Assembly (NCBI GenBank): GCA_020639295.1
Contig: JACKGY010000004.1
Location: forward strand, 6,348 to 70,347
Reading direction: 5' to 3'
Origin: Planctomycetota bacterium
Lineage (GTDB): Bacteria > Planctomycetota > GCA-002687715 > DRQF01
Length of the DNA stretch: 64,000 nt
Position numbers and translations under genes: made by a program. Below, in pieces: positions 5,399-52,152 of the stretch. The notes beneath the pieces were generated by a model. It was not told where the DNA came from, did not search any database, and saw only the letters and a list, made by a program, of their open reading frames with translations. Each line of letters opens with the position of its first letter. The stretch's first letter is position 1.

Positions 5399-5506
5399 TT
5401 TGCTGTCACATCCTCCCATGCCGGCCCTCTACCCGGGCAAGCGATGAGCGCATTCGGCGCGTGCCGAAGCTCATCCGAGTCCAGAGATCTCGATGGAGGA
5501 CCAGGA

Positions 5507-15643: not shown

Positions 15644-15666
15644 GGCGGACCGACCTCGGGGGTTGC

Positions 15667-18315: not shown

Positions 18316-18354
18316 TCCCGAGGAATCCGGCCGCCCCGAGCTCCGTCTCCGAAG

Positions 18355-18605
18355 CGCCGGCCAGCGGCCGGCGGACCTGCCGGCTGGGCAGCCGGCGCTC
18401 CGAAACGCCAGCCGCCCGGAGCGCCAGCCGCTGGCTGGCCTAGTCTTCTTCGCCCGTAGCACGCGCTCTCGCCCGACGATCCTGCCGGCTGGGCAGCAGG
18501 CGCTGCGCGGTCCTGTCGGAGCGCCAGCCGCTGGCTGGCCTAGTCTTCTTCGCCCGTTGCCCGCGCTCTCGCCCGACGATCCTGCCGGCTGGGCAGCCGG
18601 CGCAC
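18355..18605. repeat. Hairpin-module repeat, locus A (two 100-bp units plus partial)
   Basis: CTGCCGGCTGGGCAGCCGG...GGAGCGCCAGCCGCTGGCTGGCCTAGTCTTCTTCGCCCGT..CGCGCTCTCGCCCGACGATC occurs twice, with CCTAG ends at 18443 and 18543. A third CCGGCTGGGCAGCCGG follows at about 18585-18600. The hairpin modules match those at 34036-35250 and 62041-62519. Confidence 0.8.
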
Positions 18606-18619
18606 CGGGGCGTCGAAGG

Positions 18620-21600
18620 TCAGTCCTGGGAGTCGAGGATGAGGCCGAGGAGCAGCTGCCGGGCGAGGCTGCGGTCCTCGGGCGAGCGGTTGGCGTCGCG
18701 CTCGATCGTCGCCCGCGCGCCTTCCGCGCCGAGTCGTTCGAGCAGTCCGGCGACCTCCGGCTCGAACCGGAGGCGGGACCGGTTCCGCGCGGCGAGGGCG
18801 CGGGAACGCTCCGCCACGCTGACGTCGTCCCAGAGCCGCAGGCTCCGGTCGCCGCTGGCCGAGACCAGGGTCCGGCCGTCCGGAGTCCAGGCCAGCGACC
18901 AGACGTGGTCACGATGCTCGCGCAGCTGGGCCAGCTCCTCGAAGCTGTCGCCATCCCAGATCCGGATGCTGCAGTCATCCGAGCCGGAGGCCAGACGGCG
19001 GTCGTCGGGCGAGAAGGCGAGCGAATAGACCGCGGCGGTGTGGCCCACGAGCCGTCTCTCCAGGCGCCAGTCGGAGCAGCGGCGGATCTGGATCGTGCCG
19101 TCCTCGAGCCCGAGCGCGAGCCAGCGCCCGTCATGGGAGAAGGCGGCGCGACGGAGCCGCGCGGGAAGCTCGGCCTCGACATGGACCGGTTCGAGATCCG
19201 TCGTCCGGAGGACCGAGAAGCCGGTCTCGGGCAGGCCGTCGGAGAGGAAGAGCAGCGCATCCCCGGCGCCGCCGCGGGCGAACAGGCGCCCCCGGGCCGC
19301 CGTCGTGGCGAGCAGGGTCAGGTCCTCGGCCGCGAAGACCCTGAGCTCCTTCGCGTCGGCCACGAAGAGGCGTCGGCCCGCGTGGTCGAACTCGACGGCC
19401 GGGTAGCCGGCCACCTCGATCGTGCCGAGCGGCGTCATCGTTCGCGGATCGAAGACCTCGACCCGGTGGCGATTGCGTTCACCCTGACAGTCCACGGCCA
19501 GGCGGCTCGAGTCGGCGGCCATCGCCAGCTGGTAGACCACGTCATAGGTGGCGCCGGAACGCGGGATCAGGTGCCGGCCGATCACCGCGCCGGTCCGCGC
19601 GTCCCAGAAGCGGATCTGACGGTCCCAGCCGCCGGAGATGATGGTCGCGCCGCCCGGGGTGACGATCACCGGATAGACGAAGAGCTGGTGGCCGAGGAGC
19701 TGGCCCAGCGTGGTGGCCTCGCGCCAGTTCCAGACCCTGAGACCACCGCCGGCATCCTCGGAGACCAGGAGGTCGGGATCGGCGCCGAAGCGGAGGCAAC
19801 GCACCTCGCGCTCGTGACCCACCAGGGCCGCGAGCTGCTGGCCGCTTTCCAGGTCGAAGATGCGCAGGCTGCGGTCCTGCCCGGCGGTGGCCAGCAGCCG
19901 TCCGTCGGGACTGACGTCGATGTCGAAGACCTTGTCGCTGTGACCGACGCGCGTGACCCAGGGAATCTCCCGGCCATCGCGAATGTCCCAGGCCTGGACC
20001 AGGCCGTCCACCGTCGCGCTGTAGAGGCGGGGTTCCCGCGGGTGGAAGGCGAAGGCGAGGAAGTCGACCGGATTCTGCGGGTCGCCGATCTCGTGCAGGA
20101 GCTCGCCACCGCGGCGGTCCCAGATCGCGATCCGGTGGCTCTGCATTCCGCCCATGCGCGCCCCGGCGAGATGGCGTCCGTCCCGCGAGACCTCGAAGGG
20201 ACGATCGAGGGCGAGACCATCGGCCAGCGCCATCTCGGGGCCGAGATCGTAGCGGAGCACGAAGCCGTCAAGCTCCAGATCACGCGCGGCCCCGGCCCCG
20301 GCCGGTGGCTCCGCGGCCAGCTCGAACGACCGATCGGCCCGCGGATCGTCGACGTCGATGATGTCGAGCCGATGGTCGGCGGGCTGGAGGATCGCCACCC
20401 GACCATCGTCGTGGGCGACCACGTCGACCCCCAGTCCCGGAATCGGCAGGGTTCGGCGCCGGACCTCGTCGTCGTCGAGGTTCCAGACCGAGATGACGAT
20501 CGAGTCCTCGGCGCGTTCGCCGTAGACCACGCGATGGCCGTCGGCCAGGAGCCGTGGACGCATGAGTTCGCCGTGGCCAGGCGCGCGCCCGGGAAGCTGG
20601 TGGATCGAGCGGTCCAGCGCGGCCCGGAGCCGGCGCCACTCCCAGCCCCGCAGGCCGGGTTGGGTGGCGTCGAGGCGCCGGGCGGCCTCCTGGACGTCGA
20701 ACTCGCGCAGCGCCGCCTCGGCGGCGGTGATGCCCATGCGGTAGATCGCGCGCTCGACCTCGCGGGTGCGGGCCTCGGCCGCGCGCCGCTGGCGCTGCTC
20801 CTCGCGAGCGAAACGGAGCGAGATCACCAGGCCGACCACCGCGGTGAGGAAGGTCGCGGTGATGCCGGCCACCAGCACGCGGTTGCGCCTGGCGAACTTC
20901 AGGAAGTTGTAGATGGCGGAGGGCCGCCGGGCCTCGATCGGTTCGTCGGCCAGGATGTGGCGGAGGTCGCGGGCGAAGGCGTCGGCCGAGGTGTAGCGGT
21001 CTTCCCGGCTCTTCTCGAGCGCTTTCGCCACCACGATCTCGACGTCGCCGCGCAGCTCGGACTTCAGATGGCCGAGTCGCGGCGCCGTCATCTGGCAGAT
21101 GGTCCGGATGGCGCGGGCCGCCGGCATCGCATCGACCTCGTGGGGCAGGCGACCGCCGAGGATCTCGAAGGCGATCACGCCGAGGGCGTAGACGTCGGTG
21201 GGGAAGTGCAGATCGCCGGCCTTGCCCTCGAGCTGCTCCGGGCTCATGTAGGCCAGGGTGCCGACCACCTGGCCGGTGAGCGTCTCGTCGGCGCCGCGGC
21301 GATCGGCCTCGCGGGCGATGCCGAAGTCGATGATCTTCGGCCGACCGTCCCGGTCGATCAGGATGTTGCCGGGCTTGAGGTCGCGGTGGATGATGCCGCG
21401 CTGATGGGCGTGGTGGACCGCCTCGGCGATCTCGGCCAGGAGCTGCAGCCGCTGGGCGAGGTCGACCGCATGGCCGCGCACCCAGGTCCGCAGGTCCTGG
21501 CCCTCGACGTATTCCATGGTCAGGAAGGGCAGCTGGCGACCACGATGCTCGAAGGTACCGGTCTCGATCACGGTGGCGACGTTCGGATGCTGGAGTCGGG

Positions 21601-22030
21601 CGTAGACCTCGCCCTCGGTGCGGAACCGACGCAGGACGCTGGGTGAGAGGCAGGAGGGGCGGATCACCTTGATCGCCACCCGGCGATGCGGATTCTCCTG
21701 CCAGGCCTCGTAGACCAGGCCCATGCCGCCGCGGCCGATCAGCCCTTCGATGCGATAGCCAGGAATCCGGGCGGGGAGCGCCTCGTCGATCTCGTCGTCG
21801 TCGATCGGGGGCCGCGCCAGGTCCAGGACGGCCGCCAGCCGGCCGCGCTCCACCGGCGACTCGGCGAGGAAGTCCGAGTCGGCGTCCTCGACCGCGAGCA
21901 TGCGCATCACCAGGTCACGCAGCTCCTCGTCGGCGCCGGTGGCGGCCGCGACGAAGCGCGCCCGATCCGCCGCCGGGAGCTCGAGCGCCTCGAGGAAGAG
22001 ATCGCGCGCACGGCCGAAATCGGCGCTCAT
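18620..22030 (-). CDS. Ser/Thr protein kinase with TM segment and C-terminal WD40 beta-propeller repeats (K2)
   Basis: ORF 18620..22081. Kinase motifs HRDLKPGNILI, DFGIA, GTLAYMSPE. TM segment VLVAGITATFLTAVVGLVISL. WD40 units such as GHTAAVYSLAFSPDDRRLASGSDDCSIRIWD and EHRDHVWSLAWTPDGRTLVSASGDRSLRLWD. I prefer the start at ATG 22030 (MSADFGRARDLFLEAL), which overlaps the sigma stop as ATGA. Confidence 0.9.
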   Translation of the reverse strand: MSADFGRARDLFLEALELPAADRARFVAAATGADEELRDLVMRMLAVEDADSDFLAESPVERGRLAAVLDLARPPIDDDEIDEALPARIPGYRIEGLIGRGGMGLVYEAWQENPHRRVAIKVIRPSCLSPSVLRRFRTEGEVYARLQHPNVATVIETGTFEHRGRQLPFLTMEYVEGQDLRTWVRGHAVDLAQRLQLLAEIAEAVHHAHQRGIIHRDLKPGNILIDRDGRPKIIDFGIAREADRRGADETLTGQVVGTLAYMSPEQLEGKAGDLHFPTDVYALGVIAFEILGGRLPHEVDAMPAARAIRTICQMTAPRLGHLKSELRGDVEIVVAKALEKSREDRYTSADAFARDLRHILADEPIEARRPSAIYNFLKFARRNRVLVAGITATFLTAVVGLVISLRFAREEQRQRRAAEARTREVERAIYRMGITAAEAALREFDVQEAARRLDATQPGLRGWEWRRLRAALDRSIHQLPGRAPGHGELMRPRLLADGHRVVYGERAEDSIVISVWNLDDDEVRRRTLPIPGLGVDVVAHDDGRVAILQPADHRLDIIDVDDPRADRSFELAAEPPAGAGAARDLELDGFVLRYDLGPEMALADGLALDRPFEVSRDGRHLAGARMGGMQSHRIAIWDRRGGELLHEIGDPQNPVDFLAFAFHPREPRLYSATVDGLVQAWDIRDGREIPWVTRVGHSDKVFDIDVSPDGRLLATAGQDRSLRIFDLESGQQLAALVGHEREVRCLRFGADPDLLVSEDAGGGLRVWNWREATTLGQLLGHQLFVYPVIVTPGGATIISGGWDRQIRFWDARTGAVIGRHLIPRSGATYDVVYQLAMAADSSRLAVDCQGERNRHRVEVFDPRTMTPLGTIEVAGYPAVEFDHAGRRLFVADAKELRVFAAEDLTLLATTAARGRLFARGGAGDALLFLSDGLPETGFSVLRTTDLEPVHVEAELPARLRRAAFSHDGRWLALGLEDGTIQIRRCSDWRLERRLVGHTAAVYSLAFSPDDRRLASGSDDCSIRIWDGDSFEELAQLREHRDHVWSLAWTPDGRTLVSASGDRSLRLWDDVSVAERSRALAARNRSRLRFEPEVAGLLERLGAEGARATIERDANRSPEDRSLARQLLLGLILDSQD

Positions 22031-22599
22031 TCGCGGCGATCCGCGATGGCCGCGCCGAGCCAGGCCCGGGCGGCCGTCCACAACCGTTCCACGCTGCGCT
22101 TCGGCATCTCGATCAGCTCGGCGATCTCGTCCATGTTGAGGCCACCGAAGTAGCGCAGCTCGACGACCTGGGCCGACACGGCGTCCTGGGCGGCGAGCTC
22201 GCCGAGAGCCTCGTGGATGACCTCGAGGTCGTCGTTCAGGCCGGCGGCCCGGGCGACGGCCTGATCCAGGGTCACCCGCTGCCGGTCGCCGCCGCGCTTC
22301 ATCGCCTTGCGCCGTCGCGACTCGTCGACCAGCAGGTTGCGCATCACGCGGCTGCAGAAGGCGAAGAAGTGGAGCCGGTCCTTCCAGTCCACCCGGCTCT
22401 GGTCGACGAGTTCGAGGTAGAGCTCCTGGACCAGCATCGTCGGCTGCAACGTGTCGGGTCCGCGCGCCTTGAAGCAGCGGCCGGCGATGGCGCGCAGCTC
22501 GTCGTAGACCGCGGGCATCAGGGCGTCGAGGGCCTCGCGCTCGCCGGCCCGGTGCCGGCGCAGGAGACCGGTGACGTCGAATCCATCCAGGGGCTTCAT
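22027..22599 (-). CDS. ECF-type sigma factor (S2), Sigma70_ECF/TIGR02999-like, upstream of and coupled to K2
   Basis: ORF 22027..22638. Reads LLRRHRAGEREALDALMPAVYDELRAIAGR...TLQPTMLVQELYLELVD...VVELRYFGGLNMDEIAELIEMPKRSVERLWTAARAWL. Start 22599 (MKPLDG) or 22638. Confidence 0.85.
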   Translation of the reverse strand: MKPLDGFDVTGLLRRHRAGEREALDALMPAVYDELRAIAGRCFKARGPDTLQPTMLVQELYLELVDQSRVDWKDRLHFFAFCSRVMRNLLVDESRRRKAMKRGGDRQRVTLDQAVARAAGLNDDLEVIHEALGELAAQDAVSAQVVELRYFGGLNMDEIAELIEMPKRSVERLWTAARAWLGAAIADRRE

Positions 22600-22874
22600 G
22601 GTCCGCCGATCATGCCCGGACGACCCCCGTCCTGTCACCCCGGCTCGCGATTGACCCGGTGCCGGACCCCCGAGGTCGCAAGGGTTCGCCCGCCGCGGCC
22701 GGGAGTCGGTCTCGCCCGGCGGGGCGTGATGATCGGCCTCGAACCGGCGTCGGAAGCGGTCGGCTTCGAGATTCGTCGCGCGATCCGACCGCGGCCCGGG
22801 CTATCCTGGCGGGCCCGGCGCGTCCGATCCGGGTCGGTCGACCGCGTCTCCGGGCAGGCGAAGGAGAGGTGACC

Positions 22875-24101
22875 ATGAACACGAAGATCGAAGCCTCGGG
22901 TCCGGTGACCATTCTCGACAACTGGTCCCTGCAGGAGGTCGACCTCTTCCTGCGTGGGGCACGTGGACCCTCGGATGTCTCGAGCTGGGTCTGGTCGGAT
23001 GAGGGCCGGCCGCGGCGCCTGGACGGTGTCGCCGGCGTCATCCAGCTCGACTGTCTCTTCGGCCTGATCGAGCATCTCGTCCTCAGCGAGCGCCTGGTGG
23101 TGATGAAGTCCTGGATGAGCTCGTGGTACCAGCCCGGCTCGAAGCTCGGAATCCTGGTCGAGGGCGAGGGAGCGCCGGTGACGGGCCAGGACATGGAGGG
23201 CCTCGAGGCCGGTTCCAAGTGGAGAAGACTGCTGACCGAAGACCCGGCGCTGCGCCACCTGAACGACCAGGGCTGCCGTGACTACCGGGCGGGGCAGAGC
23301 ACCGAGTCTTCCTACTGGTCCCAGGTGATCGAGGGCATGACCTCCTATCTGGGTCTGTCGCAAAGCAGCCGTCGCAGCTATCTGCCCCATCCGATCCGGG
23401 TCCAGTACCTCGAATCGACGGCCTGGAAGAAGAGAAAGGCCAAGGATCCGGGCGGCCTCCAGGTCGAGGATCCGGACGGCCTCCAGGTCAAGGATCCGGG
23501 CGGCCTCCCGCTCGGTCACGTGAATCGGGTCATCCACGAGGCGCGGCTGCGCTACGTCGAGAGTCGTCATCGCGACCGTCTGTCTCGCAAACTCGTCCTG
23601 GCCATCCCGGCGGTGAGCCTGCTCTGCCTCGCCGAGGCGTCGAGCGCGACCGGGATGATCGAGATGGCGCTCCAGCTGCGCCAGGACGAGGAATTCCGCC
23701 GGCTGCGCCAGACCCTCCACGAGATCGGCGAGGCAGTCGACCGCGGCGATCTGGATCGGGTCGGCAAGGAGGGCGCCGCCTTCGCGGCGGAGGTCGACGC
23801 GGTCGAGCGCCGGCTCGGCCTGGGGCAGGGCTCGGACAGGAAGGGTCTCGACGGTGACGTCGAAACCTCGACCCTCGCGCGTCTCGAGGTCGCCGGTCCG
23901 AAGGCCGACGACGATCCTTCGCCCCCGCCGCGGCACTACGGCAGCATCACGCGGGTCCTCGCTGCCGCCTCGATCGACGTCGCCGCCCAGCTGAGAAGGA
24001 AGCTGGGCATCGACGATCCGCGCGTGCTCGATCAGTACAATCTCTGGGCCAAGCGCCGGCTGCACGGTGATGCCGCGGGCCAGGCCGCGTCCGCGACCTG
24101 A
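22875..24101 (+). CDS. Hypothetical protein (U1, 408 aa), divergent from S2
   Basis: In-frame ATG within ORF 22659..24101, preceded by AAGGAGAGG (22861-22869). Protein-like composition with no motif I recognise. Contains an in-frame 8-aa x3 tandem repeat. Confidence 0.7.
   Translation: MNTKIEASGPVTILDNWSLQEVDLFLRGARGPSDVSSWVWSDEGRPRRLDGVAGVIQLDCLFGLIEHLVLSERLVVMKSWMSSWYQPGSKLGILVEGEGAPVTGQDMEGLEAGSKWRRLLTEDPALRHLNDQGCRDYRAGQSTESSYWSQVIEGMTSYLGLSQSSRRSYLPHPIRVQYLESTAWKKRKAKDPGGLQVEDPDGLQVKDPGGLPLGHVNRVIHEARLRYVESRHRDRLSRKLVLAIPAVSLLCLAEASSATGMIEMALQLRQDEEFRRLRQTLHEIGEAVDRGDLDRVGKEGAAFAAEVDAVERRLGLGQGSDRKGLDGDVETSTLARLEVAGPKADDDPSPPPRHYGSITRVLAAASIDVAAQLRRKLGIDDPRVLDQYNLWAKRRLHGDAAGQAASAT
23442..23513 (+). 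repeat. In-frame 24-bp tandem repeat (x3) inside U1
   Basis: AAGGATCCGGGCGGCCTCCAGGTC / GAGGATCCGGACGGCCTCCAGGTC / AAGGATCCGGGCGGCCTCCCGCTC, encoding KDPGGLQV EDPDGLQV KDPGGLPL. Confidence 0.85.
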
Positions 24102-27675: not shown

Positions 27676-30198
27676 TCAGTTCACGATGTCGAGGGTCACC
27701 ACGTTGGTGAGCGCGATGTTCTGGGTCGTGGAGAAGACCACGCTCTGGAAGTGGACCGTCAGCCCGATCGCGTAGGGCGGAAGGTTGAGCGGCATGGTGA
27801 GTTCGCCGGCATTCGAAGTCCGGAAGCTGGCATTCACCAGGTCGCCGGCGGTGCCATCGGCGAGCAGCAGGAGGCCCGGGAAGGTCATGGTGACCGGGTC
27901 GTAGCTGCCGATGTCGAGCTGGCCCTGCGGGTCGAGCACCACGTTGCCCAGGTTGAGGAAGCCGGCCAGCAGCTGGATCGGCTGGTTGGGCTCACCCTCC
28001 CAGTGGAAGACCGTGGGCGCGAGGATATGGGCGGTCGCCTCATAGGGGCCGGGGAGACCGCTCTTCACCGGCTGGCCGTGGAGCGCGTCGGTGGCGTTGT
28101 TGATGTCGAACTCGCCGATCTCGAGCTGCGGGCGCTGACCCTTCTGACCGATCTGCAGGTTGATGTTGTCCAGCTTCCAGTACCAGGCGTAGTTGCCCTC
28201 GTAGCGGAAGCGGACGATCGCACTCTGATAGCCGCCGGCGGCCGCGGTCAGATCGTAGGAGGAGTGCGTGGGATCGGTGGCCTGCGAGCTGGCGAAGTGG
28301 ACGATCTCGTTCCAGACCGTGCCGTCCCAGACCTCGATCCAGGCGTCGCTGGAGCTGAAGTACTGGCGGAAGTAGCCGTCGAGGTCGAGCCTGATGTCGA
28401 GGTCGCCGCTGGCGTCGAAGAGGGGGCTGTAGAGCGCGCCCGAGACGAAGTTGCCGGTACCGGACTCGTCGGTGTCGAAGATCGCGATCGGCGCCGACTG
28501 CGGCTGGTTCAGGGTCCGGTTGCCGGGGTTGTCGAAGCGCCAGCCGTCGAGCTTCGGACGGTTGCCCTCGACCAGGGCGGAGATCCAGCCGCTGGGCGGC
28601 TGGATGCCGCTGCCGCCCGAGAAGTCCTCGAAGAACCCGGAGTCGGCGCGGCCCAGCCTGCGGTAGTGGACCTGGACGTCCGGCTGGACGTAGGACACCT
28701 GCGGAATGAAGGGGTAGTCGCCGGCGGCGCCGGTGGCCATGGTCAGGGTGCCGTCGGACTTGAAGTCGCCGGAGACGTTGAAGTCCTGGGTGTAGAAGAC
28801 CGTGTTGATGGCGTTGTTGGTCGCGGTCACGTAGAGACCCTGGATGCCGCCCTCGGGAATGAACAGGCGGAGATCCTGGGCCACCTGGACGCTGCCGCCG
28901 GTGACCAGGCTGACCGGTTCGCTGCTGATGCGCGTCCACAGCGACGGCGTGCCCGCCGCACCGAGCTGCGAGCCGCCGGCGGTGAGCGCCCAGACCTCGA
29001 TCGTGTGGTTGCCGGCGTCCAGGTTGCAGTCGATCGACTCGACGACGATCGGCTTGTTGGACTTGAGGTCGAAGAAGACGCCGATGTCGAAGTACCCGAC
29101 GGTCGGCGTCCCCGAGAAGACCGAGCTGCCGCCGGGCGTGATGCCGGTGCCCTGCGACGGGATGCGGTAGTGGACGGTGCCGGCGAAGAGGCCGGCGTCC
29201 ACGGGATTGCCGAAGGACGCCGAGGCCGTGTCGTAGGCGGTCCCGCTGTGGATGTCGATGTCGCTGCCGACGGCGCGCAGCGGAGAGCCGGACGCATTCT
29301 GGCAATCGATGCCTGCCTCGACGTTCGTGACCAGGTAGAAGCCGCGCCGCTTGCCCTTCGGTACCGCCGCCTCGAACGAGAAGGGCAGCTCCTGGCTGCC
29401 CGCGTTGGCCACGACGAAGCCGTAGCGCTCGCCGATGAGGCGCCAGGCGCCGAAGCCGTGACCCGCGGTGGCGGCCGGGACGTTCGACTCGGCGACGTAG
29501 AGCTGGAGGTGGTAGACGCCGGGCTTGAGCATCGCGCTGAGACCGGTGACGACCACGTCACGGCTCTTGGCCTCGACGTCGAATTCGATCGCGTCCTCGC
29601 TGTCGTCCACCGAGGCGGCCGTGGCCAGGCTCGCGGCGCTGCCGACCGAGCTGTTGGAGAAACGGATGGCGCCGCGGAAGATCCGCGAGCTGCCGCCGGG
29701 CGTCGTCCCGCCGAAGACGCTGCCGCCGAAGGTGGCCATGCCGGCGCCCTCGTGGAGGGCCAGACCGGCGGTGACGACACTCGCGGCATCCATGTTGACG
29801 CCGTTCTCGTAGGAGAGAGTTCCGCTGGTCGTCCTCAGGTAGAAACCGGTCTTGGCGCCGGCGGGAAGGACGACGTCGAGGGGCAGCGGAAGCTGGGTCG
29901 CCTGGAGACTCGTCGTGGAGTAGACACTGACCTTGCCGAGCAGGGTCCAGGCGCCGGCGCTGCCCTGCTTGCCGATCCAGGAGCTGCCGTCGGTGACCGA
30001 CCAGACCTCGATGGTCCGAGAGCCGGGGCTGAGCATCAGGTCGAAGCCCGTGATCCGGCAGTAGCTGCTCGCGGACAGGTCGAAGAGGACGCCGCCGCTG
30101 CTGTTGTTGGAAGAACTGGGGGTCGTGAGCGTGACTTGGGAGCTCGCCGAGGCGGCGAGCAAGAGGAGGATGCCGAGGAGGCTGCCGATCCGTTTCAT
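27676..30198 (-). CDS. Secreted ~840-aa protein, P family (P3)
   Basis: 840-aa ORF with signal peptide MKRIGSLLGILLLLAASASSQ. Three ~150-170-aa repeats, each with ..FDL/FDV..ITG.D.....IEVW....W.L.G....LP......P.G...GFYL...... and ending V.Y/RF. MAM-like block GWRFDNPG..SPLFDAS..IEVWDGTVWNEI..IVRFRYEGNYAWYWKLDNI. C-terminal module QRPQLEIGEFDIN..WEGEPNQPIQLL..PQGQLDIGSYDP..FQSVVFSTTQNIALTN. Confidence 0.85.
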   Translation of the reverse strand: MKRIGSLLGILLLLAASASSQVTLTTPSSSNNSSGGVLFDLSASSYCRITGFDLMLSPGSRTIEVWSVTDGSSWIGKQGSAGAWTLLGKVSVYSTTSLQATQLPLPLDVVLPAGAKTGFYLRTTSGTLSYENGVNMDAASVVTAGLALHEGAGMATFGGSVFGGTTPGGSSRIFRGAIRFSNSSVGSAASLATAASVDDSEDAIEFDVEAKSRDVVVTGLSAMLKPGVYHLQLYVAESNVPAATAGHGFGAWRLIGERYGFVVANAGSQELPFSFEAAVPKGKRRGFYLVTNVEAGIDCQNASGSPLRAVGSDIDIHSGTAYDTASASFGNPVDAGLFAGTVHYRIPSQGTGITPGGSSVFSGTPTVGYFDIGVFFDLKSNKPIVVESIDCNLDAGNHTIEVWALTAGGSQLGAAGTPSLWTRISSEPVSLVTGGSVQVAQDLRLFIPEGGIQGLYVTATNNAINTVFYTQDFNVSGDFKSDGTLTMATGAAGDYPFIPQVSYVQPDVQVHYRRLGRADSGFFEDFSGGSGIQPPSGWISALVEGNRPKLDGWRFDNPGNRTLNQPQSAPIAIFDTDESGTGNFVSGALYSPLFDASGDLDIRLDLDGYFRQYFSSSDAWIEVWDGTVWNEIVHFASSQATDPTHSSYDLTAAAGGYQSAIVRFRYEGNYAWYWKLDNINLQIGQKGQRPQLEIGEFDINNATDALHGQPVKSGLPGPYEATAHILAPTVFHWEGEPNQPIQLLAGFLNLGNVVLDPQGQLDIGSYDPVTMTFPGLLLLADGTAGDLVNASFRTSNAGELTMPLNLPPYAIGLTVHFQSVVFSTTQNIALTNVVTLDIVN

Positions 30199-30278: not shown

Positions 30279-30425
30279 TCGATCCCGACCGGTTCTTGAC
30301 CCGGTCTTCATCGCGAGCGGGGCCGAGTTCGGGCAAAACCGGGCTCGAAACTCGCCCTCGACCGGATGAACGTCTACGATCCCGGCTCGGCCGGGAGGTG
30401 CCCGGTCAGCTTGGGCGGGCGGAAG

Positions 30426-33448
<3,023 letters not shown>

Positions 33449-33452
<4 letters not shown>

Positions 33453-34027
33453 CCGCGACGGCGTCTCCGATCGAGGCCCGCATGCTTGCCGGCGACGACC
33501 TGGCCTTTGCCGAGCTGGCCGACCGACACGGTGGTCGGCTACGGCTGTACATCCGTCAGGTGGCCGGGCGCGCCATCGCCGCCGACAGCGACGAGGAGGA
33601 CCTCTACCAGCTCGTGGTCTTCCGGGCCTGGCAGCTCCGCGAGAGCTTCGTCCCGCGCGGGCCGGGGAGCTTCCACTCCTGGCTCGTCGCCATGGCCCGC
33701 AACGTCATCGGCGATCGGATTCGTTACCTGGCTGGCAAGGGCCGCGACGCCGGTCGTCGGGCCGTCTGCGCGGCGTCGATCGCCTCGGAGATCCCCGCGT
33801 CGATCACCTCCGTCGCCAGTCGAGCCTCGCGCCGCGAAGAGGCCGATCGCCTCGAACGCTTCCTGACCGAACTCGAGGCCGAGCAGCGGACGATCGTGGA
33901 ACTCTACTACCTCGAAGGGCTCTCTCTCGCCCAGGTGGCCGAACGCTGCGCCCGGGCACGTTCGAGCGTCTGGGAGGAGCTGCGTGACATTCTCGCCCGG
34001 ATGCGCGGCAGCCTGGGCGAGTCCTGA
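33449..34027 (+). CDS. ECF-type sigma factor (S3), coupled to K3 (ATGA overlap)
   Basis: In-frame ATG at 33449 within ORF 32924..34027; it overlaps the K3 stop (33450-33452). Reads EDLYQLVVFRAWQLRESF...WLVAMARNVIGDRIRYL...IVELYYLEGLSLAQVAERCARARSSVWEELRDILARM. Paralog of 48417..48998. Confidence 0.85.
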
Positions 34028-34035
34028 TCCCGCCG

Positions 34036-35250
34036 CAGCCGGCGCTCCGATGCACAGCAGGCGCTGCGCGGTCCGACCGGAGCGCCGACTACCGGGAGCC
34101 AGGGTGCTTCGGCTGGGCAGCCGGTGCTCCGGGTCTCCGATTGCTCGGAGCGCCAGCCGCTGGCTGGCCTAGTCTTCTTCGGCCATTGCTCGTGGTCTTG
34201 CGGCGACGATGGCCGTGCTTTCAGTCGTCGGTGACTTGAAAGCGATCGGTCTCGAGGCCGGCTGGGCAGCCGGCGCTCCGATGCGCAGCGGGCGCTGCGC
34301 GGTCCGACCGGAGCGCCGACTACCGGGAGCCAGGGTGCTTCAGCTGGGCAGCCGGTGCTCCGGGTCTCCGATTGCTCGGAGCGCCAGCCGCTGGCTGGCC
34401 TAGTCGTCTTCGGCCCTTGCTCGTGGTCTTGCGGCGACGATGGCCGAGCTTTCAGTCGTCGGTGACTTGAAAGCGATCGGCCTATAGGCCGGCTGGGCAG
34501 CCGGCGCTCCGAGGCGCAGCAGGTGCTGCGCGGTCCGACCGGAGCGCCAGCCGCTGGCTGGCCTAGTCTTCTTCGGCCATTGCTCGTGGTCTTGCGGCGA
34601 CGATGGCCGAGCTTTCAGTCGTCGGTGACTTGAAAGCGATCGGCCTATAGGCCGGCTGGGCAGCCGGCGCTCCGAGGCGCAGCAGGTGCTGCGCGGTCCG
34701 ACCGGAGCGCCAGCCGCTGGCTGGCCTAGTCTTCTTCGGCCATTGCTCGTGGTCTTGCGGCGACGATGGCCGAGCTTTCAGTCGTCGGTGACTTGAAAGC
34801 GATCGGCCTATAGGCCGGCTGGGCAGCCGGCGCTCCGATGCGCAGCGGGCGCTGCGCGGTCCGACCGGAGCGCCGACTACCGGGAGCCAGGGTGCTTCAG
34901 CTGGGCAGCTGGTGCTCCGGGTCTCCGATTGCTCGGAGCGCCAGCCGCTGGCTGGCCTAGTACTCTTCGGCCATTGCTCGTGGTCTTGCGGCGACGATGG
35001 CCGTGCTTTCAGTCGTCGGTGACTTGAACGCGATCGGCCTATAGGCCGGCTGGGCAGCCGGCGCTCCGAGGCGCAGCAGGCGCTGCGCGGTCCGACCGGA
35101 GCGCCAGCCGCTGGCTGGCCTAGTCGTCGAGAGTGATCGAGCCTCCGAGGCGCAGCAGGTGCTGCGCGGTCCTTTCCCGTCGGACCGCCCGTAAGGACCG
35201 CGGAGCGCCTGCTCCGCCACTTCCTCCGGGCCGGCTGCCCAGCCGGCCGG
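34036..35250. repeat. Hairpin-module tandem array, locus B (six units: 231/163/163/231/163 bp plus a first partial and a degenerate tail)
   Basis: Unit ends (GGCTGGCCTAG) at 34172, 34403, 34566, 34729, 34960 and 35123. Each unit chains several GC-rich stem-loops: CGGCCTATAGGCCG, GCCGGCT-GGGC-AGCCGGC, GCGCAGC-AGGT-GCTGCGC, GCCAGCC-GCT-GGCTGGC, GGCCAT..ATGGCC and GCTTTCAGTC..GACTTGAAAGC. The 163-bp period is not a multiple of 3. Confidence 0.9.
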
Positions 35251-35251
35251 G

Positions 35252-37759
35252 TCAGTCGGCTTGCCGCCTGAGCTGAACCCGCAGGCGATCCGTGTTCAGG
35301 CTGGCGGCGTCGATCTCGACGCTCTCGTAGCCCTCGAGTTCGATGCGGATGCCGGCGGGCGGTTGGCGGAGGTCGCGCAGGTAGAGGACGCGGCCGTCGT
35401 CATCGCTCACCGGGGTCGGCTGTTCAACCTCGAAACTCTCGCTCGCAAAGCGCATGCGCGGCTGGTCGAGCGTGATCACCTCGGCGTCGGCGAGGGGCTC
35501 TCCGTCCTCGTCGAGGATCCGGATCACCACCAGCTTGCGGCGATTCGCGTCGAAGCGCAGGGTCAGGCGCCGCTGCTCGGTCGCGGTCAGTTCGACGCCG
35601 TCCTGCTCGGCCAGGAGCTGATCGGCGAGGTCGCGGATCTCGATCCGGAAGCGGACGCCGGGGCGCAGGTCCTGGAGCCGGAAGATCCCGTCCGGGCCCG
35701 GACGGGCGATCAGCTCGAAGTGGTCCTCGCTCTCGGAGACGCCGACCGCGGCGCGTGCACCCAGGCCGGTCTGCAGGTCGTAGTCGAAGCCGTCGGGCAT
35801 CAGCGCGCGAGGACCGTGGACGACGAGCTGCTGAGCGGGGAAGTCGGCCGGAGCGCCCTCGAAGACCACCTCAAGCCGGTTGACCGGCGCGAGCACGATT
35901 CGCTGCCGGTTCTCGTCGGCGCGTTCGATCGCGAACCGACGCGCGCCGTGGTCGAGCGCCGTCGCCATCGCCTCGTCGATGCCGGCGCCGAGGCCACGGA
36001 TCTCGCCCTCGCCCTCGGCATCGGTCCTGGCCTGGAGACTGCCACTCGCCACCATCACCACGGCGTTCGCCAGCGGCCGGCCCGCGGGGTCGACCACCAG
36101 GAAGCGCCAGGAGCCGAGCGGGGCCAGGGCGACGTCGCCGAGGTCGACCGTGTCGGCGAAACCCTCGTCGGCGTGCAGGACCTCGATCAGCTCGCCGCCG
36201 CGGGGAACGCTCAGGCGCAGCTCATCGAAGTCCAGGACGTTGCTGCCGATCACGAAGCGGCCGTCGGCGTCGCTGCTCGCCCGCGTCGTCGACCAGGCGA
36301 TCTCGTCGTAGCGACAGTTCAGCACCACGGGCTGCCAGGGGATCGGCGCCAGGGTCGAGGCATCCACGAGCCGGCCGGTGACCCGAGGGACGGCGATGAC
36401 CTCGAGCACGAGATTCTCGGTCGGCGCGGGCAGGCTGCGCCAGCGGCCGAGATGCCGGTCCGGCTCACGGAAGGCGAAGCCCTGGCCCAGTTCGAGGCGA
36501 AGTGCCTGCCCCGGGAGAAGGCCCCGGAATCGGAAGCTCCCGTCTCCGGCCACCTTGGTCAGGCAGGAGTCACGGCGTCGCTCGAGGGGCCAGACCAGGG
36601 CGGCGATCGCGGGCGGCAGCTCCTCGCGGTCGGCGTCGTCCTGCCACAGCCGGAGCTCGAGTTCGCGATAGGGCAGGCCGCCGGCGACGCGCACCTGCCC
36701 CGAGAGGATCGCGCCCTCCTCGAGGTCGAGGCGTCGATGACCGGCGAGCTCGATCTCGCGCCGCCACCAGGGCCGCCCCGGGGCCAGGACGACGACGCTC
36801 GCCCGCCCGGCTCGGCCCGGCCGTCGCAGCCGGCCACGCTCGTCGCTCCGGCCGTCGACCAGCAGGTCCTCGTCCCGGAAGATCAGCACGCGGGCCCCGG
36901 CGATGGCGGCGCCATCCGGATCGCGCAGCTCGAGGACCAGCTCGGCCCGCTCCTCGACCAGGTCCGGCGCGGCTTCGGTCTCCTCGGTCCCGGTGGCCGC
37001 CGCAACCTCGCCGCCGCTCGGACTGCGGCGCGCGGCCGGAGTCGCTGCGGCCTCCTGCCGGTCGCCGCGGTCGAGTTCGGGTCCGTCCTCGTGGGCGAGG
37101 GTGGTGGCCAACCAGGCCACGATGGCCGCAGACAGGGCGACGGCGACGACGATCGATTTCTGACTCATGACGACTCCCGTGAAGCGGGCGGCGAGGCCGC
37201 CGATACCGCCGCCGGTGACGAGAGTTCCGACCTTGGGGGCGCTCAGGGCGAGCGGCAGCAGCACGCTTGCCCAGGACGCGGTGGGCTGATCGCGGTCGAG
37301 CCGTTCGCGCAGCATCGCCAGTCCGCGGCTGAGCTGGGTGCGGACGGTGGCGGCCGGGCGGCCGAGGCGCCGGGCGATGGCGCGCGGTGTCTCGCCGCGG
37401 AGGTAGCGGGCGACGATCAGGCCACGATAGGGTTCGGCGAGTTCGCGCAGGGCCTGCCCCAGGAGGGCATGGCTCTCCAGGATCGCCAGCGCCTCGGCCG
37501 GGTCGTCGGTCACCGCGGTCTCGACGAATTCGGCTTGGTCGGGCCGCCGGCGCCAGGATTCGGCGACCCGTCGGCGCAGGACCGAGCGCAGCCAGGAACG
37601 TTCCTGGCCGCGCCGCGGCGGTTGCCGCAGGGCCGCGAGCCAGACCTCCTGGACCAGGTCGTCGCGATCCGCCGCGTCGCGGACGAGGATCGCGGCAAGC
37701 CGGCCCAGCCAGCCGCCCTGGGCCAGGAGTTCGTCGATGCTCGTCCGTTCACCCGTCAC
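35252..37759 (-). CDS. ECF-sigma-like domain fused to hydrophobic segments and a ~600-aa C-terminal region with carboxypeptidase-regulatory-like repeats
   Basis: Single 835-aa ORF with no in-frame stop. The N-terminus reads DDLVQEVWLAALRQ ... PYRGLIVARYLRGETPRAIARRLGRPAATVRTQLSRGLAMLRERL (sigma regions 2 and 4). Hydrophobic segments WASVLLPLALSA..LVTGGGIGGLAARFTGVV and SIVVAVALSAAIVAWLATTLA follow. Repeated beta-type modules then follow (e.g. LRDPDGAAIAGARVLIF..DGRSDERGRL; VVDPAGRPLANAVVMV..ARTDAEGEGEI). Confidence 0.7.
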   Translation of the reverse strand: MTGERTSIDELLAQGGWLGRLAAILVRDAADRDDLVQEVWLAALRQPPRRGQERSWLRSVLRRRVAESWRRRPDQAEFVETAVTDDPAEALAILESHALLGQALRELAEPYRGLIVARYLRGETPRAIARRLGRPAATVRTQLSRGLAMLRERLDRDQPTASWASVLLPLALSAPKVGTLVTGGGIGGLAARFTGVVMSQKSIVVAVALSAAIVAWLATTLAHEDGPELDRGDRQEAAATPAARRSPSGGEVAAATGTEETEAAPDLVEERAELVLELRDPDGAAIAGARVLIFRDEDLLVDGRSDERGRLRRPGRAGRASVVVLAPGRPWWRREIELAGHRRLDLEEGAILSGQVRVAGGLPYRELELRLWQDDADREELPPAIAALVWPLERRRDSCLTKVAGDGSFRFRGLLPGQALRLELGQGFAFREPDRHLGRWRSLPAPTENLVLEVIAVPRVTGRLVDASTLAPIPWQPVVLNCRYDEIAWSTTRASSDADGRFVIGSNVLDFDELRLSVPRGGELIEVLHADEGFADTVDLGDVALAPLGSWRFLVVDPAGRPLANAVVMVASGSLQARTDAEGEGEIRGLGAGIDEAMATALDHGARRFAIERADENRQRIVLAPVNRLEVVFEGAPADFPAQQLVVHGPRALMPDGFDYDLQTGLGARAAVGVSESEDHFELIARPGPDGIFRLQDLRPGVRFRIEIRDLADQLLAEQDGVELTATEQRRLTLRFDANRRKLVVIRILDEDGEPLADAEVITLDQPRMRFASESFEVEQPTPVSDDDGRVLYLRDLRQPPAGIRIELEGYESVEIDAASLNTDRLRVQLRRQAD

Positions 37760-43381: not shown

Positions 43382-43593
43382 GACTTGCCGCTCACGAACG
43401 TCGTGATGCTAACCCGCGGCACCCATGACCTCCACGGGCGCTGCTGGCGAATCGGCCCACTGGCCGCGCCGTGTGGCGGGAGGGCCATCCCGGCGCAGAA
43501 TCGAGATTCTCTTCGAACCCGAGCTCGAGGCCCTACGTTGGGGGGGCGAGATCAGCGCGTAGGGTCCTCCCCGGACCCCAGAGAGGAGTTGCC

Positions 43594-45786
43594 ATGAACC
43601 GAAAGACCAGTTTCGCCGTCCTGTTGTTGCTAGCGATCGGCCTCCGTGCCGCGGCGCAGACCGGGCCCGCCATGGGCGTCTACAAGGGGCTCGACATCAA
43701 GAACATCGTCGCCGGTGACTTCGATCTGGACGGACTTCCAGACGGCATCCATGTCACCGCGAACGACCTCTACGTCGAGCTGAACTACGGCATCGGCAAT
43801 CTCCCCTGGACCCTGACCTTTCCCGGCGAGGGAGGCGACGACGTCGCCGTCCGCGATCTCGACGGGGATTTCAATCTCGACGTGATCGTCCTGCAGTCGG
43901 TCAACGTCAACTACGACCTGGCCACCGTTCGGGTCCTGATCAACGACGGTTTCGGCGGTCTCAACGGCAGCACGGTCCAGATCCGTGGCCGCCACCTGCC
44001 CCAGGTCGTGGACCTGAACGGCGACGGCATCCTCGACCTCCTCGCCGATGACCACTGGAATCGGGGCACCGCCCCGGGCGTCTTCATGCCGGCGCCGCAG
44101 GCGATCGCGATCGTGGACCAGCCACACCTGCCGCTGGGCGATCTGGCGGACGACTTCGGCCTCTATACCGCCGGTGATTTCGACGGAGACGGCGATGCCG
44201 ATCTGCTGCGCTATCGCTACCAGCAGGTCTCGCTGGGGCGCTATGCCTACGCCGACCTCCTGGTCAACGACGGCACCGGCGTCTTCAGCTACCGGAGCAG
44301 CGAACGGGTCTCGTCGCCCAGCTTCGACACGCCAAGGACGCGGTTCGTGGTCTTCGACCACGACCAGGACGGCATCGACGACTTCCTGGTCGAGGACACC
44401 TTCATCGGCCGCCTGGTGATCCACCTCGGTGATCCCGCGGGCCGCTTCCTCGGTGGGCTGGTCCATGTTCCCGGGCAGGGCAGCTTCGTCGGCCGCGCCG
44501 ATCTCGATGGCGACGGCGACCAGGACATCGTCGTGAGACGCCCCGTCTTCTCCACGATCCCCAATCCCAATCCGCCGCCGCCGTCGTTGAACGTGATCGA
44601 GAACGTCGGCCGCGACGTGTTGAGCGAGCCCACGCTGAGCACGCTCTCCTTCATCGACCATCGCTTCGCCGTCGCCGACCTCAACCTCGATGGCCGGGAG
44701 GACTTCGTCTTCCTCGGCCCCTTCGCCACCTTCGGCTTCGGGGTCGCGCTCTCGAACATGCTCTCGACCATCAACCCTCCGGTCCGGGAGCTGGTCGGCG
44801 TCACCGGTGTCGGTCAGGTCGTGCCCGCCGGCACCGCTCCCACGCAAGCGCTCGGCATCGTGCTGCGAACCGCCGGCGGCCAGCCGGTCGGCGGCGAGAC
44901 GGTCACCGTGGCGGCGGAAGCCGGTCTCGTCGGCGCGACCAGTTTCGTGACCAATGCGAGCGGCCTGATCTCCATCCCGTTGAATCTCAGCGAGGTCGTC
45001 GGCCGGCATCGGGTCACCTGCTCGGCTCCTCTTGCCGCCTCGCGACACTTCGTCGTGGAGGTCACGCCGACCCGCAACATCGTGCTCGTCGCCGGCTTCG
45101 ACCAGGGCGCCAACCCGGGCGGGAACTTCCCCCAGCCGCTCCAGGCGCGCGTCGTCGATGCCGCGGGCAGCCCGGTGCCGGGCGTTCCGGTCGAGGTCTC
45201 GCGCGACTGGCCGAACGGTCCCTATCCGATTCCCGGCTCCCCCTTCATGACCGACGCCAGCGGTGCGATCTCGGTCACGGTGCCAGCCGGGCAGCCGTCC
45301 GCCGGGCTGAGCTACGCCGGCGACCTCGGCGATCTCGGGGTCCTGGTCGGCGCGCCGCGCGCGGCGAGCGTCGAGGCGAGGATGTTCACCCGGCGCTTCT
45401 CCGTCGAATTCGGTGTCGTCGGCAGCAGCGGTTCCGGAGGCTGGGTCCTCCGCTACCACCACGAGCACATCTACACGCCGCTCATCCTCATGGCCGACGC
45501 CCCGCAGCCGGCGACGCCCTCGATCTTCGGCAACTGGTACACCTCGTTCCTCAACCCGCAGCCGACCCTCTTCATCCTCGACGGGCTCGGCCTGACCGGG
45601 CCGCCGGTCCCGAGCCTCGTCACCGCGCCGATCCCGGGCTTGCCGGGCTATTCCTACGAGCTGATCATCCCCTGGAACGCCGTTCCGGGCGGGACCCAGG
45701 TCGTGTTCCAGATGCTGAGCTACGACAACGCCTATCCCTTCCCGGCCAAGGTCGGGCTCTCGGACCCGGCCACGGTCACCTTCTGA
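43594..45786 (+). CDS. Secreted FG-GAP/VCBS-repeat protein (F2), paralog of F1
   Basis: In-frame ATG within ORF 43471..45786, with GAGAGGAG at 43581-43588. Signal peptide MNRKTSFAVLLLLAIGLRAAAQ. Co-linear with F1 from TGPAMGVYKGLDIKNIVAGDFDLDGLPDGIHVT to the shared C-terminus PSIFGNWYTSFLNPQPTLFILDGLGLTGPPVP...GTQVVFQMLSYDNAYPFPAKVGLSDPATVTF. Confidence 0.85.
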   Translation: MNRKTSFAVLLLLAIGLRAAAQTGPAMGVYKGLDIKNIVAGDFDLDGLPDGIHVTANDLYVELNYGIGNLPWTLTFPGEGGDDVAVRDLDGDFNLDVIVLQSVNVNYDLATVRVLINDGFGGLNGSTVQIRGRHLPQVVDLNGDGILDLLADDHWNRGTAPGVFMPAPQAIAIVDQPHLPLGDLADDFGLYTAGDFDGDGDADLLRYRYQQVSLGRYAYADLLVNDGTGVFSYRSSERVSSPSFDTPRTRFVVFDHDQDGIDDFLVEDTFIGRLVIHLGDPAGRFLGGLVHVPGQGSFVGRADLDGDGDQDIVVRRPVFSTIPNPNPPPPSLNVIENVGRDVLSEPTLSTLSFIDHRFAVADLNLDGREDFVFLGPFATFGFGVALSNMLSTINPPVRELVGVTGVGQVVPAGTAPTQALGIVLRTAGGQPVGGETVTVAAEAGLVGATSFVTNASGLISIPLNLSEVVGRHRVTCSAPLAASRHFVVEVTPTRNIVLVAGFDQGANPGGNFPQPLQARVVDAAGSPVPGVPVEVSRDWPNGPYPIPGSPFMTDASGAISVTVPAGQPSAGLSYAGDLGDLGVLVGAPRAASVEARMFTRRFSVEFGVVGSSGSGGWVLRYHHEHIYTPLILMADAPQPATPSIFGNWYTSFLNPQPTLFILDGLGLTGPPVPSLVTAPIPGLPGYSYELIIPWNAVPGGTQVVFQMLSYDNAYPFPAKVGLSDPATVTF

Positions 45787-48416: not shown

Positions 48417-48998
48417 TCAGGCGCGGATCGCCGCCCGCAGGCGCTGGAGGACTTGCTTTGAGTCCTCCCAGACCGTCGAGCGGGCGCGGCCGGTCCGTTC
48501 GGCGACCTCGGCCAGGGACAGGCCCTCGACGTAGTAGAGCTGGATCAGCTCGCGCGCCTCGCCGTCCAGCTCGTCCATCGCCTTCTCCAGCCGATCGGTC
48601 GTCTCCCGCCGGGCCGCCCCGCTCGCGACCGAGGTGATGGAAGCGGGGATCGCCGAGGCGATGCTCGCCGCCCGGACGTAGCCCTGGCCCAACCGGCGCC
48701 CCTTGCCCTGGAGATAGCGCAGTCGTTCCCGCACCACGTTGCGCGCCAGGGCCGTCAACCAGCGGTGGAAGCCGCCGCTCTCGTCCTCGACGAAGGCGGC
48801 GCGCAGCTGCCAGGCCCGGAAGATGACCAGCTGGTGGAGGTCGTCCTCGTCCTGGTCGCCGCTCGGCAGGCCGCGCGCGAGCTGGCGGATGAACAGACGG
48901 AGGGGCAGGGCGTGGCGCTCGATCAGCTGCGCGAAGGCGGCGTCGTCACCCGCGCGCATGCGGGCGACCAGGCTCGGGTCCGGCGACGAGGCGCTCAT
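48417..48998 (-). CDS. ECF-type sigma factor (S4), coupled to K4 (ATGA overlap); paralog of S3
   Basis: In-frame ATG 48998 within ORF 48417..49454; it overlaps the K4 stop (48995-48997). Reads DDLHQLVIFRAWQLRAAF...WLTALARNVVRERLRYL...LIQLYYVEGLSLAEVAERTGRARSTVWEDSKQVLQRL. Confidence 0.85.
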   Translation of the reverse strand: MSASSPDPSLVARMRAGDDAAFAQLIERHALPLRLFIRQLARGLPSGDQDEDDLHQLVIFRAWQLRAAFVEDESGGFHRWLTALARNVVRERLRYLQGKGRRLGQGYVRAASIASAIPASITSVASGAARRETTDRLEKAMDELDGEARELIQLYYVEGLSLAEVAERTGRARSTVWEDSKQVLQRLRAAIRA

Positions 48999-52096: not shown

Positions 52097-52152
52097 CGGG
52101 CTTCGCGGCCCTTGGTCTCGTGTCCGCAACCAAACCCCTTCGGAGACCCCCC

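Follow-up and report, generated by a model that had tools for sequence, protein, structure and literature searches.

A tandem array of inverted hairpin doublets, built like bacterial interspersed mosaic elements, in a Planctomycetota genome

A 64,000-nucleotide stretch of a Planctomycetota genome (assembly GCA_020639295.1, contig JACKGY010000004.1; hereafter the window) contains a 1.2-kb tandem array of hairpin-rich, noncoding DNA between two convergent genes. The architecture of this array is like that of the bacterial interspersed mosaic elements (BIMEs) of type BIME-2, in which an inverted doublet of repetitive extragenic palindromic (REP) hairpins with a conserved inner spacer is joined to an outer linker and repeated in tandem. 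The feature is a new sequence family of a known element type, not a new kind of system. The best explanation, with a probability of roughly 60%, is a BIME-like cluster formed by a REP family not recorded before; it would have been seeded by transposition of single-stranded DNA and have grown by local recombination or slippage, effects on the host being secondary. An initial annotation, made from the letters alone, had likened the array to REP/BIME-type mosaic elements; the present results support this comparison and sharpen it to an inverted pair of tagged hairpins with a conserved spacer and a linker (PMC3333891, PMC3733652).

The array, the second of three in the window (arrays 1 to 3; Table 1), spans positions 34028-35251. 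Six units, 231 or 163 bp long, follow one another head to tail in it, and a terminal piece of 128 bp comes last. Unit borders were set by cutting at an invariant CTAG, which gave the order 231-type truncated to 145 bp, 231, 163, 163, 231 and 163 bp, and then the 128-bp piece. Tandem Repeats Finder placed the array at 34035-35125; it gave one period of 231 bp, with 2.2 copies at 95% matches, another of 163 bp, with 3.1 copies at 98% matches, and a higher-order period of 394 bp. Sequence reading and this program together bear out the original description of a 1.2-kb array of 163/231-bp units between convergent genes. That description had placed six units immediately after a stop codon; the six are there, but the first is truncated. 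The 20-mer CCAGCCGCTGGCTGGCCTAG occurs 12 times in the window, always on the plus strand, against 0.01 occurrences expected. The hairpin GCCGGCTGGGCAGCCGGC has 10 copies on the plus strand and a single inverted copy at 35230-35247, 4 nt from the stop codon of the 35252-37759 gene, which is where an inverted module had been noticed.

The evidence that carries the REP interpretation comes from two hairpins of each unit, D and G. Read on the plus strand, D has the form (CTA)TAG-GCCGGCT-GGGC-AGCCGGC-GCTCCG, and read on the minus strand, G has the form (GA)CTAG-GCCAGCC-AGC-GGCTGGC-GCTCCG. A census of hairpins with 7-bp stems, together with an alignment, showed that D and G share the GCTCCG tail, a TAG-containing tag and the stem frame, and that two of their seven stem pairs differ by double compensatory changes (G-C to A-T and T-A to C-G). 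D and G are thus one element type in opposite orientation, and each unit is therefore an inverted doublet with the tags outside and the tails inside. In an alignment of 20 distinct copies, 97.8% of the stem cells are paired. A covariation analysis of the copies, which the initial annotation had proposed, gave a positive answer: the score of the D/G alignment was reached by 0 of 500 shuffles, and sliding the partner columns abolished the pairing. An attempt to read the strand of action from G.T versus A.C mismatches was dropped, since both kinds occur.

A covariance model (R1) was built from the D/G alignment and run over the window. It returned 28 matches that score 31-46 bits and divide evenly between the strands (14 each). 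All of them lie in the three arrays; elsewhere, the best match reached 19.8 bits. The model is sensitive to polarity, as the array hairpins drop to 13 bits in the wrong orientation. The 28 hairpins are thus polar, GC-rich stem-loop repeats with a 7-bp stem and a loop of 3-4 nt. D on the plus strand and G on the minus strand alternate in all arrays, so that REP and inverted REP are paired in locus-homogeneous clusters. The location is extragenic: all copies lie in three intergenic gaps and no strong match falls inside any gene. The modules had been reported to recur in a single orientation at two further loci; the loci hold (18348-18609 and 62041-62519), but the single orientation does not, because D and G are opposite.

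The remaining parts of the unit can be described relative to this doublet. The inner spacer is 41 nt long and conserved, and it contains hairpin E (GCGCAGC-AGGY-GCTGCGC). In the outer linker, about 80 nt long, the T-rich TCTTCTTCG is followed by a variable stretch, by hairpin B and by the left half of a 14-bp palindrome (C), CGGCCTATAGGCCG, whose right half is made up of the tag and the first stem bases of D. This palindrome had been described from the letters and is present, although in the second unit its sequence is CGGTCTCGAGGCCG. A further hairpin of that description, GGCCAT..ATGGCC, is probably not a real element because it is not maintained across copies: its 3' arm is constantly ATGGCC, and its 5' arm varies (GGCCAT, GGCCCT or GCCCGT). 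In the terminal piece, an inverted copy of E (E', GCGGAGC/GCTCCGC) differs from E by one compensatory pair. The D-E-G element is predicted to fold as one long hairpin or as three small ones, and the folding of a two-unit stretch compared with shuffles gave z = -5.0 (RNA, plus strand), -9.2 (RNA, minus strand) and -6.2 (DNA).

Judged from sequence comparison, the D-G doublet and its outer linker are reiterated head to tail at each locus, with copies homogenised within loci and divergent between them. Unit identity is 91-99% inside array 2 and 97.5% inside array 3. Between these two arrays it is 85-91% overall, with 81-85% in the outer linkers and 100% in the G hairpin region. The unit variants of 231, 163, 112 and 100 bp differ by deletions or duplications between short direct repeats at the feet of hairpins. 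First, the 231-bp unit is the 163-bp unit plus a 68-bp module F, which is bounded by the 9-nt direct repeat CGGAGCGCC and holds a third, degenerate D-type hairpin (D*); the three D* copies form a G-C / A.C / A-T series at a stem pair that separates D from G. Second, in the 100-bp unit of array 1, D is fused to E across the 5-nt repeat GCAGC. Third, the 112-bp unit of array 3 is without E, its break lying between 3-nt CCG repeats; at 62145-62189 there is no inner spacer, and the joining of the two tails gives the 16-nt palindrome GGCGCTCCGGAGCGCC. Such rearrangements are the marks left by slippage or by illegitimate recombination at the feet of hairpins, and by unequal exchange between units.

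Tandem Repeats Finder called array 1 at 18417-18603 with a period of 100 and array 3 at 62165-62519 with a period of 163, and local BLAST found no copy of any module in the 64-kb window beyond the three arrays. Array 3 begins 33 nt upstream of the ATG of a hybrid histidine kinase gene (62008, minus strand). On its right it borders an insertion sequence (IS) of the IS1380 family and no gene end. The transposase of this IS matches Pfam PF13701 (E=1.6e-151) and NCBIfam NF033539 (E=5.5e-120). An open reading frame (ORF) at 62725-63771 on the minus strand was rejected as right neighbour of array 3, being an antisense artefact of the transposase gene on the plus strand. A possible orientation bias was likewise set aside: the linkers have the same orientation in the three arrays and GC skew is positive in 13 of 16 4-kb windows, and three loci carry no statistical weight.

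The tags add a second line of evidence. CTAG is invariant in 12 of 12 G-type copies, and the D-type tags are ATAG (6), CGAG (1) and CCT, CAT or CCCG (5). In the 60.5 kb not taken up by the arrays or the IS there is a single CTAG (at 43630), compared with about 67 occurrences expected from a Markov model and about 171 from base composition, and 12 of the 14 CTAGs of the window are tags of G hairpins. GTAG is over-represented in the window (165 versus 101). The near-absence of CTAG from host DNA and its invariance in the G hairpins show that the tag is maintained against the genomic trend. The low-GC end of the IS1380 element directly adjoins the final CTAG of array 3, a place at which all other units go on with TCTTCTTCG. 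REPs are documented as insertion targets of IS elements (PMC1525189), and both the conservation of CTAG and the insertion at the tag fit a REP-type element.

A mechanism can be proposed for the origin of such a cluster. Transposition of single-stranded DNA, driven by a REP-associated Y1 tyrosine transposase (RAYT, or TnpA-REP type) encoded elsewhere in the genome, would have brought the hairpins to the three intergenic loci; the enzyme would read the hairpin with its tag and cut near GGCC/TAG. Local amplification could then have followed by unequal recombination or replication slippage. For the most part the element would be neutral or selfish. A side effect could arise on transcription within a 3' untranslated region or as intercistronic RNA: the stable hairpins, which start 4-18 nt past three stop codons (34027, 35252 and 18620), could block 3'-exonucleases, and they could also weaken read-through between the two convergent genes. 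As E. coli REPs suggest by analogy, the arrays could stabilise upstream mRNA or impede read-through. Transcripts of minus-strand genes would include arrays 1 and 3 as intercistronic or 5'-leader RNA.

Several observations weigh against placing the array among REP/BIME elements. First, its linkers are far longer and more structured than those of the E. coli BIME; they carry hairpins E and B and, in module F, even a third, degenerate REP. Second, the D/G stems are perfect in 24 of 28 copies; a stem mismatch is needed by the E. coli TnpA-REP, a requirement known for the E. coli enzyme only (PMC3333891). Third, the tags contain TAG but are never GTAG. Fourth, no Y1 transposase was found among the approximately 45 ORFs of the window scanned against Pfam. 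Fifth, there is no solitary hairpin or lone doublet in the approximately 16 other intergenic gaps of the window. Many solitary hairpins and lone doublets are typical of classical REP genomes. Sixth, none of the collections searched (genomes, metagenomes, viruses, plasmids and phages) contains the family.

These searches covered both nucleotide and protein data. Rfam gave no match at the gathering threshold in the window and none in the array at E<=10, the best sub-threshold match in the array scoring 20 bits against a gathering score of 90. Searching the literature by exact hairpin sequence returned no record of the family, and a search by sequencing-run accession also came back empty. A match to an already described repeat family, which the initial annotation had named as an outcome that would count against it, was thus found neither in Rfam nor, by exact sequence, in the literature. 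The 20-nt core had two single chance matches among the GTDB species genomes (an Actinomycetota metagenome-assembled genome, MAG, and Rhodoferax), both without the CGGAGCG head, and no match in the JGI metagenomes. Viral contigs, plasmids and phages gave no match to the family. Six-frame translations compared with 5.8 billion predicted proteins, a search that also addressed ORFs mis-called over such arrays, gave no match either. The annotation search found no tRNA or transfer-messenger RNA genes.

D with its tail, searched against the JGI metagenomes, retrieved one lone hairpin, identical in two samples and without further copies on that contig. This D-type hairpin with a GCTCCG tail lies on contigs Ga0302323_100006571 (2690-2721) and Ga0302321_100001907 (843-874); 24 nt are identical and R1 scores it at 42 bits. 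Its context is a 63-nt gap between two co-directional genes of an unrelated organism of lower GC content. It could be a chance match or a distant solitary relative of the array family.

Assembly behaviour was also informative. The 7.4-kb short-read Logan contig SRR12358676_542886 stops at the right edge of array 2, 50 nt in, at the inverted D/E' hairpins (7364-7419 of the contig). The array is thereby shown to be a genuine repeat on which short-read assemblies break. As this contig shows, such arrays fragment short-read MAGs and then drop out of public collections.

Other explanations of the array were weighed. An origin from a DDE transposon is unlikely, and among the alternatives it survives best. 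The doublet would then be a satellite derived from a miniature inverted-repeat transposable element, with terminal inverted repeats TAGGCCRGCY...RGCYGGCCTA, a TA target duplication and later tandem amplification, and no Y1 transposase would be involved. The D-E-G element does have inverted ends of 26-27 nt with TA on both sides in the 163-bp units (CCTA/TAGGCC...GGCCTA/G), but the flanking TA is found in 163- and 231-type units only, and 5 of 12 D copies have no TA/TAG on their left but CCT, CAT or CCCG. The 9-bp direct repeat CGGAGCGCC around module F resembles a target-site duplication, yet the ends of the arrays show no consistent target duplication. Furthermore, the "inverted ends" are themselves complete polar hairpins, which is the REP pattern. 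The sole transposase of the window is of the IS1380 type and the window holds no autonomous partner; local BLAST detected no match to the modules in the IS1380 region, the left end of the IS itself not having been aligned to them.

Less likely again is that the array exists as a host-selected cis-acting RNA or DNA device, that is, a bidirectional transcription barrier or a stabiliser of mRNA 3' ends, a role that would be compatible with a BIME-like cluster of REPs. It would act for the convergent sigma-factor genes and at junctions inside operons, and the repeats would be there to serve it instead of being selfish. The closeness of the hairpins to the three stop codons named above speaks for such a device, as do the D or D/E hairpins that directly follow both convergent genes in the sense orientation of each, the very stable folds predicted on both strands and the conserved T-rich TCTTCTTCG after every G hairpin on the plus strand. 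However, one hairpin would suffice for this purpose and six near-identical units of 163/231 bp would not be needed, array 3 precedes a gene start, and four other convergent gaps of the window have no such element.

The transcription signals bear on the same question. Scans of the three arrays found no promoter-like and no terminator-like site, so that no hairpin followed by a U-tract passes the terminator scan. The tract TCTTCTTC, located 4 nt after the G stem, does not make G an intrinsic terminator. A canonical intrinsic terminator is present elsewhere, at 15612-15644 on the minus strand after the 15667-18207 gene, with a perfect GC-rich stem of 14 bp, a 5-nt loop and TTTTT. Because the arrays have no terminator-like site while the organism uses a canonical one there, they are unlikely to be classical terminators, as had been suggested among the possible roles. 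Apart from those in the arrays, the intergenic DNA has just three perfect hairpins with stems of 7 bp or more, and the 15612-15644 terminator is among them.

Two more speculative ideas are improbable: the perfect-stem doublets with CTAG/ATAG could form a REP-like system independent of GTAG-type RAYTs, in which another HUH enzyme or nuclease acts at GGCC/TAG in a genome otherwise nearly devoid of CTAG, or the arrays could be cut into unit-length regulatory RNAs for the adjacent sigma-factor and kinase genes.

The proposal that the array consists of tandem structured noncoding RNA genes, with each unit transcribed and processed into a unit-length RNA, has only a slim chance of being correct. The folding z-scores are strongly negative, and compensatory changes are seen in D/G, in E/E' and in palindrome C; in addition, the intermediate of the D* series (G-C / A.C / A-T) would be a G.U wobble only on a minus-strand transcript. 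Nevertheless, the compensatory events that are independent number only about 3-5, and symmetric changes in palindromes can come from template switching. As DNA, the hairpins are palindromes close to perfect, and both strands fold equally. Modules B, C, E and F are present or absent between units, which leaves no single conserved architecture, and the array has neither an Rfam family, even at E<=10, nor promoter-like sites. On these grounds the structured-RNA array considered in the initial annotation was not upheld.

A protein-coding repeat or a CRISPR-like array (clustered short palindromic repeats, regularly interspaced), to which the regular repeat structure and, for coding, the 231-bp unit as a multiple of three with a 64-codon ORF at 34209-34403 might point, is refuted by the data, as had been argued from the outset: the 163- and 100-bp periods shift the frame, the 64-codon ORF is not kept in the other 231-bp units, the protein search had no match, and the whole unit is repeated without unique spacers, with no cas domains in the ORFs of the window.

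Table 1. Coordinates of the three arrays, their units and modules, and the adjoining genes and insertion sequence in the window.
Feature	Position	Strand	Description
Array 2	34028-35251		entire intergenic space between convergent genes; six CTAG-terminated units and inverted terminal piece
Unit a2.0	34028-34172	+	truncated 231-type, 145 bp; begins within hairpin D, 8 nt past stop codon 34025-34027; E 34052-34069; F 34078-34145 (degenerate D* hairpin 34108-34125); G 34152-34168; CTAG 34169-34172
Unit a2.1	34173-34403	+	231 bp; B 34217-34243; palindrome C variant CGGTCTCGAGGCCG 34247-34260; D 34257-34274; E 34283-34300; F 34309-34376 (D* 34339-34356); G 34383-34399; CTAG 34400-34403
Unit a2.2	34404-34566	+	163 bp; B 34448-34474; C 34478-34491; D 34488-34505; E 34514-34531; G 34546-34562; CTAG 34563-34566
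Unit a2.3	34567-34729	+	163 bp; B 34611-34637; C 34641-34654; D 34651-34668; E 34677-34694; G 34709-34725; CTAG 34726-34729
Unit a2.4	34730-34960	+	231 bp; B 34774-34800; C 34804-34817; D 34814-34831; E 34840-34857; F 34866-34933 (D* 34896-34913); G 34940-34956; CTAG 34957-34960
Unit a2.5	34961-35123	+	163 bp; B 35005-35031; C 35035-35048; D 35045-35062; E 35071-35088; G 35103-35119; CTAG 35120-35123
Terminal head-to-head piece	35124-35251		E (+) 35150-35167; inverted E' 35200-35217; inverted D 35230-35247
Left flanking gene	33486-34027	+	ECF-type (extracytoplasmic function) sigma-70 factor; Sigma70_r2 and r4 domains; start approximate
Right flanking gene	35252-37759	-	835 aa; sigma-70 domains fused to CarboxypepD_reg
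Array 1	18348-18609		100-bp units; between kinase-WD40 gene stop codon (18620) and next minus-strand gene start codon (18207); G-like hairpin 18356-18372 (-); D 18379-18396 (+); G 18423-18439 (-); D/E fusion 18484-18501 (+); G 18523-18539 (-); D 18584-18601 (+)
Array 3	62041-62519		G 62061-62077 (-); D 62145-62162 (+) abutting G 62173-62189 (-) without spacer; then two 163-bp units: D 62278-62295, 62441-62458; E 62304-62321, 62467-62484; G 62336-62352, 62499-62515; last CTAG 62516-62519
IS1380-family insertion sequence	62520-64000	+	runs off window end; low-GC left end 62520-62616; transposase ORF from 62617

Both genes that flank array 2 are of the sigma-factor type, and they converge on it. 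The 835-aa protein on the right is 100% identical to an NCBI protein of a "Planctomycetes bacterium" MAG, encoded on a contig of 693,934 bp, and its next homologue is only 29% identical, which indicates an isolated lineage and makes a comparison of synteny with relatives impossible.

The window has other repeated features among its genes. Four Ser/Thr kinase fusions are encoded at 1580-4699(-), 30366-33452(+), 48995-51946(-) and 18620-22081(-), three with a C-terminal FGE-sulfatase domain and one with WD40 repeats. All but the one at 1580-4699 adjoin genes for ECF-type sigma factors (33486-34027, 48417-49454 and 22027-22638), and this adjacency in three of four cases suggests that pairs of sigma and kinase genes recur. 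Another four genes, paralogues of one another that encode about 840 aa and have no Pfam match (13023-15539(-), 15667-18207(-), 27676-30198(-) and 52120-54657(+)), show a very high GC content at third codon positions (0.92-0.94), a low one at first positions, and common nucleotide blocks that are 61-96% identical (repeat families D2, D10, D13 and D17). The FG-GAP / Big_1 repeat proteins at 10279-12894(+) and 43471-45786(+) share stretches of 73-83% nucleotide identity at a constant offset, 32,892 bp apart, and are probably a segmental gene duplication. Finally, a collagen-triple-helix repeat protein (5231-6694(+)) has 27/54-bp tandem repeats at 6229-6360, and an ORF at 22659-24101 without a Pfam match has an in-frame tandem repeat of three 24-bp copies at 23437-23508.

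On present evidence the array is a well-formed example of a known phenomenon. If the full genome were to confirm a high copy number and a REP-flanked Y1 transposase, a deep-branching uncultured lineage of Planctomycetota would join the carriers of REP/BIME elements, and the unusual tag (CTAG/ATAG) and the long structured linkers would be of use in studying substrate recognition by RAYTs and the growth of BIME clusters. There is also a practical side, as such arrays break short-read assemblies and can be mis-annotated as genes or as CRISPR-like arrays.

Compared to known repeat systems, the array has likenesses of different depth. The BOX elements of pneumococcus (boxA-boxB(n)-boxC; PMC3049150) are also modular and intergenic, with a variable number of internal modules and a strong predicted secondary structure, but BOX is without the tagged inverted hairpin doublet, and its modules are different and have no homology to those described here. 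The REP doublets forming hairpins (REPINs) described by Bertels and Rainey (2011, PMC3116915) come closer, as they consist of two inverted REPs with a spacer that are able to fold as one long hairpin. REPINs are presumed to be non-autonomous; they depend on one RAYT gene and occur as single doublets, in the hundreds, at dispersed sites (PMC3116915), whereas the family described here forms tandem clusters only, at three loci of the window.

The likeness to the BIME-2 of E. coli (Bachellier, Gilson et al.; Ton-Hoang 2012, PMC3333891) is more extensive. BIME-2 combines a REP and an inverted REP of two subtypes with a short linker between them and variable flanks; its tandem copies are conserved within a locus, number and linker vary between loci, and chimeric "atypical" forms exist (PMC3333891). 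First, both systems have an inverted pair of subtypes whose stems differ by complementary changes. Second, both have a conserved inner linker and a variable outer linker, and the pair is reiterated in tandem. Third, copies are near-identical at each locus, and linkers and copy numbers differ between loci. Fourth, chimeric ("atypical") units occur in both, and both are extragenic and often lie at the 3' ends of genes. The differences from E. coli BIMEs are that there is no sequence similarity and the host phylum here is Planctomycetota, that the tag is CTAG or ATAG and not GTAG, that the stems are perfect and of 7 bp and not of about 12-14 bp with a mismatch, and that the unit measures 100-231 bp and not about 80-100 bp.

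The superfamily of GTAG-tagged REPs, which includes SMAG of Stenotrophomonas and the GTAG-20/21 families of Rhodopirellula baltica (Di Nocera et al. 2013, PMC3733652), provides a further comparison. REP families are on record in Planctomycetes (R. baltica) and Verrucomicrobia (PMC3733652). The array family departs from the GTAG-tagged superfamily in three respects. The first base of the tag is C or A here, whereas the published families keep G and only positions 2-3 are degenerate; every copy in the window is clustered, with no singletons; and the sequences are unrelated to those of the R. baltica families, as judged only from the peptide translations in the supplement of that paper (PMC3733652). 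In tagged REPs the stem measures 6-9 bp and the loop 2-4 nt, and head-head dimers are formed in which a conserved spacer takes up 20-100 bp (PMC3733652); the family described here agrees with them in stem and loop sizes, in the unpaired terminal tetranucleotide and in the head-head dimers with conserved spacers. It further shares with the superfamily the tandem reiteration of dimers with flanking DNA, the division into sub-families by complementary changes in the stem, and the occurrence in the Planctomycetes-Verrucomicrobia-Chlamydiae superphylum.

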